A program made the translations under genes and the position numbers. A DNA stretch of 64,000 bases from Candidatus Saccharimonadota bacterium (GTDB taxonomy: Bacteria; Patescibacteriota; Saccharimonadia; Saccharimonadales; JAXHMH01). The stretch is taken from contig JAXHMH010000002.1 of NCBI GenBank assembly GCA_034521515.1, positions 280,379 through 344,378 on the forward strand, written 5' to 3'. The notes under the pieces were generated by a model. It worked only from the letters and a program-made list of their open reading frames with translations. It searched no databases and was not told the DNA's origin. Of this stretch, positions 9,583 through 60,401 are shown one piece after another (the stretch's first letter is position 1; each line of letters begins with the position of its first letter).

Positions 9583-10049
9583 TAGTTTCTACCCTTAAAT
9601 GTCACAAACATTCGTTATAAATTAACAATCGACGCCTACCTTAGTGGTAAACGCCGATTGTAAGCGGGTGTGACGGTGTAAGAATCCTATAAAACGTGTT
9701 TTACTCTCGCGGGGACAAGATTACGTAAAACAGCGATTTATAGTTGAGTTTTGGCCTGTCGTTCCCTAGCACACATCACCCTGCTGCAATTGAGTAAGAA
9801 GGGAGTTAGATCGGTTACGCCACTTGCTCGGTTATCACATAGGCGTCCATCTAATAGTGATAACGTCAACGCACCCTAACTCAATTGTGCCCACATTATA
9901 GTACTTTTTGTAATTTATGTCAATGCTTGAGCAGCGTTTACTTAAGCAGTTCCGTAAACTCTGCGGGATACTTATGACTTAGGCGTGTGACTGCCGCCTT
10001 CGCAAACCGGACACCAAAATCAATAATCTCTTTTTCTAGTACCTGCATA

Positions 10050-36720: not shown

Positions 36721-37038
36721 ATGGGTTCAAGAACAGCGCCAGCAGTGAGCCAGTCGAAGCGCTTCAAGACGAAGGGTGTTCGTCCAATTGATCGAGATGC
36801 TCTCGCAAAATCGATCATGAACATTCGGGAGGTCTGCGAGGTCAGCATCGACGGCAACCACATGGTGGTCGTGTACGATACGACTGGCTGGAGCCGCCAG
36901 ACACGCAAGAAGCGAATTCCCGACTTGGACAGCATGGTTTGCAAGCTGATCGCACACCGGTCAGCCAATCCGCGACCAACCAAGAAGCGAGGGAACAAGT
37001 TCAACAACCGACCGCCAGCAATGCTGGGCAAGAAGTAG
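36721..37038 (+). CDS. hypothetical basic protein in a locally GC-rich segment
   Basis: AAGGA lies 9 nt upstream of the ATG at 36721. The protein is K/R-rich. A 168-aa ORF on the opposite strand makes the strand assignment uncertain. Confidence 0.35.
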   Translation: MGSRTAPAVSQSKRFKTKGVRPIDRDALAKSIMNIREVCEVSIDGNHMVVVYDTTGWSRQTRKKRIPDLDSMVCKLIAHRSANPRPTKKRGNKFNNRPPAMLGKK

Positions 37039-47115: not shown

Positions 47116-47156
47116 CTCCCCCTTTGTTCACGATCGTGAACAAAGGGGGAGGTTTT
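47116..47156 (+). terminator. rho-independent terminator of the 45960-47039 gene
   Basis: CTCCCCCTTTGTTCACG pairs with CGTGAACAAAGGGGGAG (17 bp), followed by GTTTTT. Confidence 0.8.
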
Positions 47157-47219
47157 TGGTTGATAGTTTTATCTATTTGAACCTGCTAATTGCCTGATTG
47201 TTTAGATCTAAATTCAAAT

Positions 47220-47443
47220 CCACCGTTTCAACAGAAACAAAAAAACCCACCTGAACAGTGGGTTCTTTTCTTCCTGGCTTGTCACCCATCGATCTTGAGC
47301 CTCAGGGTCGAAAGATGAGCCTGTCGAATGGGCTTGCCGTGAGCCTGTCGAATGGACTTGCCATGAGCTTGTCGAATGGGCCTGCCGTGAGCCTGTCGAA
47401 TGGGCTTGCCATGAGCCTGTCGAATGGCGGAAGGAGAGGGATT
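47220..47443 (-). repeat. orphan tRNA-Ser trailer
   Basis: On the tRNA-sense (minus) strand the order is as follows. First ATCCCTCTCCTTCCGCCA-type 3' end (47425-47443). Then four TTCGACAGGCTCAYGGCARGYCCA units (47317-47424), then one long unit (47275-47316). Last comes a 58-bp block that also occurs at 47546-47603. Confidence 0.9.
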
Positions 47444-47600
47444 ATAGCCTCAGGCCAGGCAGCCTATTTTGTCTAGTTACTTTGGCTGCTTGGCTTCAGC
47501 ATATAATCTCGCTAACCGCTCGATTATCTGAACCCGGGTTCGAACCCACCGTTTCAACAGAAACAAAAGAACCCACCTGAACAGTGGGTTCTTTTCTTCC

Positions 47601-47691
47601 TGGCGGAAGGAGAGGGATTCGAACCCTCGGTGCCGTTGCCGGCACAACTGTTTTCGAGACAGTCCAGTTCGACCACTCCTGCACCCTTCCA
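47601..47691 (-). tRNA. tRNA-Ser (anticodon CGA), CCA encoded
   Basis: Hand fold: acceptor GGAAGGG/TCCTTCC, anticodon stem ACTGT/ACAGT, loop CTCGAAA, long variable arm, T-arm GAGGG TTCGAAT CCCTC. Confidence 0.9.
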
Positions 47692-53022: not shown

Positions 53023-53099
53023 GCACCCGTAGCTCAGCTGGATAGAGCGTCTGTTTGCGGTACAGGAGGTCGTAGGTTCGAATCCTGCCGGGTGTACCA
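53023..53099 (+). tRNA. tRNA-Arg (anticodon GCG by hand fold), CCA encoded
   Basis: Acceptor GCACCCG/CGGGTGT, D-arm GCTC AGCTGGATA GAGC, anticodon stem TCTGT/ACAGG, loop TTGCGGT, T-arm GTAGG TTCGAAT CCTGC. Confidence 0.85.
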
Positions 53100-53144: not shown

Positions 53145-53287
53145 GGCAGGTTCGGTTCTACGACTCAGCAGCTTGCTGATGAAAGTCGTAGGTTCGGCGT
53201 AGCGAAGTGCAGAAAAGAAAGCACCGTAGGTATTTTCTTTTCAAGCTAGCGGAGGAGGCTTTAGCCGCTATCCTGCCGGGTGTACCA
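53145..53287 (+). repeat. tRNA-Arg-derived structured module M1 (T-arm split by a 73-nt two-hairpin insertion, ends in the tRNA-Arg 3' end with CCA)
   Basis: gtcgtaggttcg (53185-53196) equals tRNA positions 53069-53080. atcctgccgggtgtacca (53270-53287) equals tRNA positions 53082-53099. The insertion 53197-53269 lies inside the T-loop. Confidence 0.8.
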
Positions 53288-59563: not shown

Positions 59564-59869
59564 GGAGAGGTACCCAAGTGGCTGCTGCGTGAAACGTGAA
59601 TTGTTCGACGGTTTGCGGCAAACCAGATAAGGTAACAGGTATACTGCACATTACAATTCAAATACGGATAAATACCCGAGTGGCTGCTGCGTGAAACGTG
59701 AATTGTTCGACGGTTTGCGGCAAACCAGATAAGGTAACAGGTATACTGCACATTACAATTCAAATACGGATAAATACCCGAGTGGCTGCTCAAGTGAAAC
59801 GTGAATTGTTCGACGGTTTGCAGCAAACCAGATAAGGTAACAAGTATAATGCACGTACAGCTAGAATAC
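59564..59869 (+). repeat. three tandem 102-bp units, each beginning with a tRNA-Ser 5' acceptor/D-arm-like sequence
   Basis: The units span 59564-59665, 59666-59767 and 59768-59869. Unit 1 starts ggagaggtacccaagtggctg, identical to the first 21 nt of the adjacent tRNA. Units 2 and 3 start ggataaatacccgagtggctg. All three contain gacggtttgc, which also occurs in the tRNA anticodon arm. Confidence 0.95.
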
Positions 59870-59962
59870 GGAGAGGTACCCAAGTGGCTGAAGGGGACGG
59901 TTTGCTAAATCGTTAGGGGGTGGAAACACCCCGCGAGGGTTCGAATCCCTCTCTCTCCGCCA
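59870..59962 (+). tRNA. tRNA-Ser (anticodon GCT), CCA encoded
   Basis: Acceptor GGAGAGG/TCTCTCC, anticodon stem ACGGT/ATCGT, loop TTGCTAA, long variable arm, T-arm GAGGG TTCGAAT CCCTC. Confidence 0.9.
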
Positions 59963-59993
59963 TGAACCATATGGTTCATAGCTATGGTAGTAC

Positions 59994-60083
59994 GGAAGGG
60001 TGACCGAGTGGTTGAAGGTACTTGTCTTGAAAACAAGCGTGCCGGCAACGGTACCGTGGGTTCGAATCCCACCCCTTCCGCCA
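59994..60083 (+). tRNA. tRNA-Ser (anticodon TGA), CCA encoded
   Basis: Acceptor GGAAGGG/CCCTTCC, anticodon stem CTTGT/ACAAG, loop CTTGAAA, long variable arm, T-arm GTGGG TTCGAAT CCCAC. Confidence 0.9.
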
Positions 60084-60240
60084 TTCGACAAGCTCATGAC
60101 AAGCCCATTCGACAGGCTCATGGCAAGTCCATTCGACAAGCTCATCTTTCGACCCTGAGGCTCAAGATCGATGGGTGACAAGCCCGTTCGACAGGCTCAT
60201 CTTTCGACCCTGAGGCTCAAGATCGATGGGTGACAGGCCA
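60084..60240 (+). repeat. tRNA-Ser trailer repeats: two 24-nt units and two ~54-nt units, three of the four ending in CCA
   Basis: TTCGACAAGCTCATGACAAGCCCA (60084-60107), TTCGACAGGCTCATGGCAAGTCCA (60108-60131), and long units at 60132-60185 and 60187-60240. Confidence 0.95.
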
Positions 60241-60251
60241 GGAAGAAAATT

Positions 60252-60277
60252 ACCCGCCATGCAGGTGGGTTTTTTTG
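60252..60277 (+). terminator. rho-independent terminator of the tRNA-Ser operon
   Basis: ACCCGCC pairs with GGTGGGT (one G-U pair), followed by TTTTTTT. Confidence 0.75.
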
Positions 60278-60401
60278 TTTCTGTTGAAATGGTGGATATT
60301 AATTTAAATCCAAGCAAACAAGCTATTAGTCGATTCATACGGATAAACCGATCAATCAAAAAACACCCCTTTTGTTCACGATCGTGAACGGAGAGGGTAG
60401 T

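Follow-up and report, generated by a model that had tools for sequence, protein, structure and literature searches.

Tandem CCA-ended units behind tRNA-Ser sites of a Saccharimonadota bacterium, probably amplified 5′ parts of a trailer-resident repeat element

We analyzed a 64,000-nucleotide (nt) stretch of a contig from a Candidatus Saccharimonadota bacterium (hereafter, the window), in which head-to-tail arrays of short, mostly CCA-ended units follow two tRNA-Ser sites. Judged by sequence comparison, the units correspond to tandemly amplified 5′ parts of a repeat element that forms hairpins. This trailer element occupies tRNA 3′ trailers, mostly those of tRNA-Ser, in Saccharibacteria and in uncultured bacteria related to them, and the sole universal feature of the wider family to which it belongs, as far as the compared sequences reveal, is a 13-nt core, TTCGACARGCTCA, set inside three complementary bases. 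We consider it probable that the window arrays are slipped-out fragments of a trailer-resident member of this bracketed-core family.

Two arrays between a CCA and a terminator

The features of the two arrays are listed below; positions in the 47-kb region are given as a minus-strand reading.

47690-47601, minus strand: intact tRNA-Ser(CGA) (ARAGORN; Rfam tRNA, 50.3 bits)
47546..47600, minus strand: terminator module T1, GGAAGAAAAGAACCCAC-loop-GTGGGTTCTTTT... (terminator scan; inverted repeat I3)
47444..47545, minus strand: spacer from T1 to the orphan (direct repeat D2, 124 nt at 76%)
47443-47425, minus strand: orphan copy of the last 19 nt of tRNA-Ser(CGA), CCA-ended (repeat search, D4, 100% identity, spacing 176)
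47424-47401, 47400-47377, 47376-47353, and 47352-47329, minus strand: four 24-nt units (Tandem Repeats Finder, period 24, score 191)
47328-47275, minus strand: long unit, 54 nt (sequence)
47220..47274, minus strand: terminator module T1', paralogue of T1, with its hairpin at 47269-47239 (repeat search; terminator scan)
59994-60083, plus strand: intact tRNA-Ser(TGA) (ARAGORN; Rfam)
60084-60107, plus strand: second array, unit 1, 24 nt, CCA-ended
60108-60131, plus strand: second array, unit 2, 24 nt, CCA-ended
60132-60186, plus strand: second array, unit 3, 55 nt, CCG-ended
60187-60240, plus strand: second array, unit 4, 54 nt, CCA-ended
60241..60290, plus strand: terminator module homologous to T1 and T1', with its hairpin at 60252-60270 (terminator scan; sequence comparison)

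As read from the sequence, the intact tRNA-Ser(CGA) gene carries zero units, and its CCA is abutted by T1, the stem of which was identified by the terminator scan as an intrinsic-terminator hairpin at 47595-47565. The spacer beyond T1 and the region downstream of T1' are diverged copies of each other; the spacer holds a T-arm-like GGGTTCGAACCC and ends in a mutated T-arm, GAGGCTATAATCCCTC. The CCA of the orphan that follows is the 5′ flank of unit 1. Each 24-nt unit is composed of the core, YGG, a linker CARGY, and CCA, and the long unit contains the core, then a nested reverse-type unit (CCC-TGAGGCTCAAGATCGAT-GGG), and then TGACAAGCCA. All five units of this array are CCA-ended, and Tandem Repeats Finder described them as 4.7 copies of a 24-nt period. 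In the second array the CCA of tRNA-Ser(TGA) is the 5′ flank of unit 1, and the program reported a period of 24 with 2.7 copies and a period of 55 with 2.1 copies. Both arrays are bracketed by a CCA upstream and an intrinsic terminator downstream.

An earlier note on this DNA had described CCA-ended tandem units between the CCA and the terminator behind two tRNA-Ser sites, and both the sequence and Tandem Repeats Finder bore this out. It was also right that the terminator module directly follows the CCA of tRNA-Ser(CGA), and that tRNA-Ser(TGA) carries two short and two long units, three of them ending in CCA and one in CCG; its length of 24 nt for the short unit stood, but the long unit, put there at 53 nt, measures 54 nt.

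The core occurs in nine exact copies in the window, every one inside the two arrays. When up to two mismatches were allowed, 16 matches were obtained, compared with a shuffle mean of 2.5, and none of 100 shuffles reached 16; the sole near-match outside the arrays, at 36746-36758, lies inside a gene, has no complementary flanks, and is a chance match. A full CCA/TGG bracket is present in four of the nine units. Two of the three bracket pairs are kept in the units with CGG (two) or TGA (one) after the core, and in the long units, where TCT follows the core, the bracket does not pair. Directly 5′ of every TTCGAC stands GCCA or CCCA.

Searched against Rfam 15 at the gathering threshold, the window gave only tRNA matches and a cyclic-di-GMP-II riboswitch, none on the arrays, and a permissive search of the arrays (E ≤ 10) yielded nothing beyond weak, chance-level matches. 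A sub-threshold match to sX4 was set aside as it covers the tRNA-Ser body only. BLAST of a window array against plasmids and phages returned no match.

The full trailer element and the cross-phylum core family

A metagenome scan for TCCGCCA followed by the core retrieved 59 stretches with 53 distinct junctions, of which about 30 come after a tRNA-like 3′ end, 3 after another copy of the element, and about 20 in other contexts. Sixteen of the junctions belong to intact metagenomic tRNA-Ser genes, which have the anticodons gct, tga, gga, and cga, and one to a tRNA-Asp gene; in all of these the core begins at CCA+1. On the contigs selected by the motif, 17 tRNA-Ser genes have the element and 17 do not, and degenerate versions stand behind two tRNA-Arg(gcg) genes.

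In these relatives the full element spans 65-100 nt; it starts at the first base after the CCA and stops short of the terminator, which was recognized in the sequence as a terminator-like hairpin plus T-run. Its parts are, in order, the core TTCGACAAGCTCA; the small hairpin TGGnn...nnCCA, which covaries; a conserved GAGAUUGGAGAAUG or GAGAUUGUCGAAUG, in RNA GAGAUUG(G/U)(A/C)GAAUG; and a copy of the core in reverse orientation, nCC-TGAGC-(0-11 nt)-GTCGAA-GGn, capable of pairing with the first one. An optional end module closes with ...CCGCCA, after which another copy may come. The short unit of the window equals the first 23 nt of this element, as is evident from the locus L166, TTCGACAAGCTCATGGCAAGCCA|GGAGATTG..., where GGAG... 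continues after the bar. The long unit at 47328-47275 is nearly identical to a single unit that follows an identical tRNA-Ser(TGA) 3′ end at L165, and the same variant recurs at L202 and L221. By these comparisons, the window arrays are truncated and amplified 5′ pieces lacking the 3′ half needed for the full fold.

Compensatory changes back both the small hairpin and the reverse-unit brackets: columns 17-23 (CG:8/UA:7), 18-22 (CG:4/UA:4), and 43-70 (UA:9/CG:5) covary, and shuffle and slide controls scored far lower. The long pairing between core and reverse core is invariant, and covariation therefore speaks neither for nor against it; the alifold consensus does pair the 5′ core with the reverse core. 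Folding z-scores of full elements are modest, from -1.6 to -3.5.

At four loci (L179, L193 at 762-960, L202, and L221), full-length trailer elements of about 100 nt stand in tandem, ending ...CCGCCA or ...CGTCA directly before TTCGAC or TTTGAC, so that the junction of CCA and core is kept at the level of whole elements too. On a GC-rich phage contig (L227, 5100-5235, minus strand), a tRNA-like gene between the terminase and portal genes has core-TGG-CGGCC-reverse core at CCA+1, and the tRNA junction is hence not confined to Patescibacteria. Two candidate identities for parts of the element were rejected. A hammerhead or other self-cleaving ribozyme at the CCA edge was dismissed as CUGAGCGA...GUCGAA misfits the hammerhead core and the Rfam ribozyme models gave no score, and a decayed local tRNA 3′ end does not by itself explain the 3′ module (GUUCCAGACCC...CCGCCA), since these modules resemble each other more than the adjacent tRNA.

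The core is far more widely distributed than the trailers. A scan for two cores 11-41 nt apart, for which the chance expectation was estimated at well under one, found 42 viral contigs and at least 120 genome loci in Actinomycetota, Pseudomonadota, Bacteroidota, Chloroflexota, Cyanobacteria, Verrucomicrobiota, Eremiobacterota, and one Saccharibacteria metagenome-assembled genome, cultured isolates included; viral and genome loci of the family were labelled L001-L162 and L260-L374. A tRNA gene of any kind is present in only 12 of the 162 two-core loci listed. Across 581 distinct copies, Watson-Crick complementarity of the flanks amounted to 91% at positions -1/+13 (65% expected), 91% at -2/+14 (41% expected), and 86% at -3/+15 (36% expected). 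This signal vanished when the register was shifted by one position in either direction, and G-T pairs were not enriched. The commonest flank pair is CCC/GGG, and an independent scan for single copies in viral sequences recovered at least 120 loci with CCC-core-GGG versus 1 with the control CCC-core-CCC.

Most family copies are solitary; some form inverted pairs that make long hairpins, and some form arrays. Conservation is asymmetric, with none upstream of the 5′ triplet and a downstream consensus GGG-CGARCGG, and the copies show no orientation bias relative to neighbouring open reading frames (ORFs). Inverted pairs sit in convergent intergenic regions, for example in Sphingobium replicons, at up to 33 places per megabase, and BLAST with an idealized 82-nt hairpin located unannotated, REP-like clusters in Sphingobium, Comamonas, and Moraxella plasmids. 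With an idealized 31-nt unit, BLAST gave no match in E. coli genomes and, among cultured phages, only a 19-nt match in LIT1-like Pseudomonas phages. In four viral contigs (L030, L031, L001, and L019), arrays of 24-nt units apparently run in frame within portal- or lysozyme-like phage genes or near N-termini, where they would add 8-residue repeats such as FDRLTTGW, according to translated flanks read by eye.

No Rfam 15 family matched the full elements or the arrays of other phyla, even in permissive searches. Literature searches by DNA and RNA sequence and by translated peptide strings found nothing relevant to the core family, and a search by topic found nothing on tRNA trailer repeats in Saccharibacteria. 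An all-against-all BLASTP comparison of the ORFs within ±4 kb of the 162 loci, made in search of a linked enzyme, disclosed no family recurring across taxa, and its sole cluster came from one group of related prophage contigs. The bracketed core, with its strict 3-bp rule in distant bacteria and in phage contigs, is a more surprising result than the arrays. It is possible, though we consider it doubtful, that N3-TTCGACARGCTCA-N3', often followed by CGARCGG or CARGN, is an undescribed, near-universal bacterial and phage element, either the smallest known mobile DNA unit or a structured signal in RNA or single-stranded DNA that some conserved machinery reads, and that Patescibacteria recruited it to mark the CCA|U boundary of tRNA-Ser; if so, the CCA-phased arrays of the window would be the footprint of that recruitment.

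The CCA rhythm and the origin of the arrays

In arrays of other phyla, 24 nt is the commonest period, and the layout is N3-core-N3'-CARGN-N3, in which the N3 after the linker both closes a small hairpin with N3' and brackets the next core on its 5′ side. Examples are ccc-TTCGACAGGCTCA-GGG-CAGGC-ccc and tgg-...-CCA-CAGGT-tgg; CCC/GGG, TGG/CCA, or TGC/GCA are used in these 24-nt arrays instead of CCA/TGG. The window unit, cca-TTCGACAGGCTCA-TGG-CAAGC-cca, has a layout identical to that of 30 distinct 24-nt units from other phyla, with CCA as its N3. A core preceded by a CCA flank is followed by TGG in 39 of 54 distinct sequences, and T stands at +13 in 1% of the general family.

These data suggest a simple route to CCA-ended units. 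The tRNA's own CCA would serve as the 5′ bracket, and the TGG carried by the element as the 3′ bracket. On head-to-tail duplication of the core plus hairpin, every new core would need a CCA bracket of its own, and the 3′ arm of the preceding TGG...CCA hairpin would supply it, which would explain why every unit is CCA-ended. The rhythm would then reflect the bracketing rule of the family, seeded by the tRNA CCA, rather than the marking of a tRNA-like 3′ end, and with so simple a structural cause a new class of CCA-ended small RNAs need not be proposed.

Unit counts differ between paralogous sites, with 0 at tRNA-Ser(CGA), 5 at the orphan, and 4 at tRNA-Ser(TGA), and the relative L165 has one long unit. 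For a comparison independent of the motif we used the convergent comF gene as a synteny anchor; the NlpC/P60 neighbour had too few relatives. Eight further Saccharibacteria lineages share the synteny (pilin genes, hsp20, comF, and tRNA-Ser(tga)/(gct)), and the element was found in only two of them, at L248 with a split core and at L246 at a contig end. The patchy presence, the copy numbers, and the GCCA or CCCA flanking every unit argue for local amplification and loss, most likely by slipped-strand mispairing or by unequal recombination between GCCA|TTCGAC junctions. Head-to-tail copies, varying copy number, and microhomology at the unit ends are the characteristics of slippage-type tandem repeats, and all three were found here.

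The orphan site probably arose by duplication of the tRNA 3′ end together with its trailer. The duplication itself is seen in the repeat search, in which 47155-47278 and 47481-47604, a pair that includes the orphan, are 76% identical over 124 nt. On the reading that we consider probable, the array of tRNA-Ser(TGA) would be transcribed within the tRNA 3′ trailer and discarded at 3′ maturation, and the orphan array, lying past T1, would be transcribed by read-through only. The truncated copies of the window, and these alone, would then be nonfunctional remnants.

Several observations weigh against this account. We infer slippage rather than observe it. The TGG after CCA in trailer elements could partly reflect common descent instead of repeated selection, and the orphan 3′ end, 100% identical to the tRNA in surroundings of about 76% identity, calls for gene conversion or selection. 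The sharp and recurrent start at the CCA could indicate an RNA function of the full element, as could a few G-U pairs possible on the sense strand only (UGGC/GCUA in L194 and three G9-U50 pairs in A1). The invariance of the 13-nt core across phyla is left unexplained.

The earlier note had offered a different origin, in which the units are degenerate copies of the segment from T-loop to CCA and yield CCA-ended, minihelix-like small RNAs. Although the units start with TTCGA, end in CCA, and at 24 nt nearly match the 23 nt of that segment, we regard this as very improbable. Each unit is the 5′ 23-24 nt of the longer trailer element and has no similarity to the tRNA 3′ segment beyond TTCGA and CCA; one unit ends in CCG, and the 24-nt layout of other phyla has CCC, TGG, TGC, or GGG where CCA stands. 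A minihelix would be expected to combine a stable helix of about 7-12 bp with an unpaired NCCA, but a single unit folds at -4 kcal/mol (z = -0.13) into a 4-bp stem in which only CA is unpaired, and the whole array folds with z = -1.78. The pairing conserved in the family engages the CCA itself, both in the flank pair of the next unit, where it forms the 5′ arm, and in the TGG...CCA hairpin, where it forms the 3′ arm. Slippage or recombination at the fixed CCA junction, which the earlier note had also put forward, fared better and is the most economical source of the arrays, given the copy-number differences, that of L165 included. In the family at large, the core is abundant at sites far from tRNAs and lacks CCA phasing, the outcome that the earlier note had named as refuting its reading in favor of an ordinary dispersed repeat; within the window this is not the case.

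An origin by transposition deserves more weight and is still unlikely in our estimate. In this scenario a tiny nonautonomous element, with the core plus 3′ bracket as its end, would be mobilized in trans by an IS200/IS605- or RAYT-type HUH/Y1 transposase; the 5′ triplet (CCA at tRNAs, CCC elsewhere) would be the target and the 3′ triplet (TGG, GGG) the guide, and arrays would be produced by repeated insertion or local amplification. Such transposases place their insertions directly 3′ of a short target, which base-pairs with a guide inside the element; guided insertion of IS608 was reportedly worked out by Barabas et al. in 2008 and Guynet et al. in 2009. Such a mechanism fits conservation on the downstream side only (GGG-CGARCGG), the exact left edge at the CCA in many independent tRNA contexts, and the filled and empty paralogous sites, which differ precisely by units with no obvious target duplication beyond GCCA. 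It also fits the reverse unit nested in the long unit, the occurrence of both orientations, the copies inside ORFs of viral contigs, and the lack of G-T enrichment in the flanks, as a rule acting at the DNA level predicts. Yet no transposase family recurs within ±4 kb of the 162 loci, and the autonomous parent was not found there. A 3-nt guide in a unit of 19-26 nt lies far below the size of any known member, and the ends of IS200/IS605 elements are not mutual inverted copies, whereas forward and reverse cores often pair here.

Less probable still is a functional trailer RNA, in which the full element would fold on the pre-tRNA after the CCA and define or assist 3′ maturation, for example as a helix for RNase P or another endonuclease cutting between CCA and U+1, or else would act as a switch that sequesters the CCA, with UGG pairing to the CCA of the tRNA or to a downstream CCA; the window arrays would be versions of it that have expanded or decayed. 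In favor of such a function, five kinds of tRNA are represented among the intact genes, at least 17, in which the element starts at CCA+1, upstream of a terminator. The covarying small hairpin, the conserved single-stranded blocks such as GAAUG, the sense-strand G-U pairs, the alifold consensus joining the 5′ core to the reverse core, and the same arrangement at the GC-rich phage tRNA-like gene fit it as well. However, the main helices are invariant and thus receive no support from covariation, and the z-scores of full elements are modest. The presence of the element in 2 of 8 syntenic lineages, and behind 17 tRNA-Ser genes versus 17 without it on the same contigs, is patchy and argues against its necessity. 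The wider family has no orientation bias relative to genes, and the window copies lack the 3′ half required for the fold.

A repeat peptide encoded antisense to the arrays can hardly be entertained. Two ORFs with SLSNG repeats run antisense through the arrays:

47258-47476, plus strand: SLSNG-repeat ORF
59861-60181, minus strand: SLSNG-repeat ORF

Both arrays are traversed by these open frames, and the 24-nt period corresponds to 8 codons, but by construction the core is open in five of its six frames. The former ORF is antisense to the orphan tRNA 3′ end and T1', and the latter to two intact tRNA genes; long units interrupt the peptide repeat, and neither ORF has an evident ribosome-binding site. 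The SLSNG ORFs are spurious repeat products, which gene callers may annotate as hypothetical proteins, and the bracketed core probably lies behind many such spurious repeat ORFs in annotations.

Known repeat systems, orphan tRNA 3′ ends, and other features

The family resembles the REP, BIME, and REPIN repeats, the background to which is reportedly found in the work of Higgins (1982), Gilson (1984), Nunvar (2010), Bertels and Rainey (2011), and Ton-Hoang (2012). It shares with them short imperfect palindromes in both orientations, inverted pairs forming long hairpins, convergent intergenic clusters (Sphingobium), many copies in some genomes, and positions upstream of terminators. In contrast to REP sequences, which are specific to a species or genus, the 13-nt core is identical in Actinomycetota, Bacteroidota, Cyanobacteria, Chloroflexota, Saccharibacteria, and viral contigs; it has a 3-bp stem with a fixed 13-nt interior, and it occurs within ORFs and in head-to-tail arrays. 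Unlike REP and REPIN repeats, it is not dispersed in many copies over the 64-kb window, where the motif is confined to two tRNA-Ser trailers, and the ORFs within ±4 kb of the 162 loci disclosed no link to a RAYT.

The 3′ repeats of the E. coli tyrT locus (the rtT region), said to have been described by Egan and Landy in 1978 and by Rossi et al. in 1981, offer a second comparison. There the tRNA 3′ end, that is, the last 19 nt including CCA, begins every 178-bp unit. Here, too, a 19-nt tRNA 3′ end plus trailer recurs downstream, at 176 nt, but the tRNA 3′ end is found only in the large duplication; the 24- and 54-nt units, which have just TTCGA and CCA in common with the tRNA, are members of an unrelated family with dispersed copies.

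The pattern is also compatible with the rule known for IS608 of the IS200/IS605 group, in which the element inserts immediately 3′ of a short target, a guide lying at a fixed distance within the element is complementary to this target, and no target duplication results. Known elements of this group use targets of 4-5 nt and carry subterminal hairpins together with a transposase gene, or else they are PATE derivatives at least 100 bp long; the present repeat has a 3-nt bracket and a 19-26-nt unit, and near the 162 loci no transposase is linked to it. Minisatellites that change by slipped-strand mispairing, such as the MIRU-type tandem repeats of mycobacteria, have in common with the window arrays the head-to-tail units, the copy-number differences between paralogous or related loci, and microhomology, here GCCA, at both unit ends. 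They differ in that the present unit is not locus specific and forms part of a motif shared across phyla, within which a pairing rule applies.

Orphan tRNA 3′ ends are common in these genomes, at 84-240 nt beyond the intact gene, and were also seen at L165, L166, L169 (twice), L178, L185, L190, L213, and L249. The window has another one:

53270-53287, plus strand: orphan 18-nt tRNA-Arg 3′ end (ATCCTGCCGGGTGTACCA) with its own terminator, 188 nt after tRNA-Arg(gcg) at 53023-53099

Its spacer carries the 5′ half of the T-stem in direct and inverted copies (GTCGTAGGTTCG and CGGTTCTACGAC), and the arrangement at +188 is present at L165 as well. The succession of tRNA, terminator, spacer of 100-200 nt, orphan 3′ end, and terminator recurs in several Saccharibacteria lineages, at L169 (4255-4495 and 7638-7790) and, downstream of tRNA-Ser(gct), at L248, L249, L251, and L256. 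The spacers are homologous between lineages, with a conserved CAGCTTGCTG loop and partial T-arm copies in both orientations. These arrangements look like scars of duplication or recombination at the T-loop, or they could be an unrecognized RNA gene. Together with the start of the element at the tRNA-Ser CCA, the orphan 3′ ends point to unusual recombination or processing at the tRNA 3′ ends of Saccharibacteria-like genomes, a group that has received little study.

At 47444-47452 (minus strand), a TATAAT-like GGCTATAAT stands where the T-loop TTCGAAT of the orphan would be, and a similar replacement is seen in orphans of three lineages, namely, the window, L169 (AAGATAATCCC), and L249 (CTTAGTAATCCC). 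This could be a -10 box or plain decay; a -35 element that would complete a promoter from the mutated T-loop (GGCTATAAT) was not found in the window.

A 102-bp tandem repeat of 3.1 copies at 92% identity (59571-59890, plus strand) lies directly upstream of, and runs into, tRNA-Ser(GCT), and each of its units comprises a copy of the tRNA 5′ segment (TACCCAAGTGGCTG) and upstream sequence. In one Saccharibacteria lineage (L249, 3151-3744, and L250, 1495-2088), a gene with a faint LAGLIDADG match separates comF from the tRNA-Ser pair and adjoins the beginning of tRNA-Ser(tga). The cyclic-di-GMP-II riboswitch aptamer of the window is located at 9800-9885 (minus strand) and scores 58.8 bits, above the Rfam gathering threshold.

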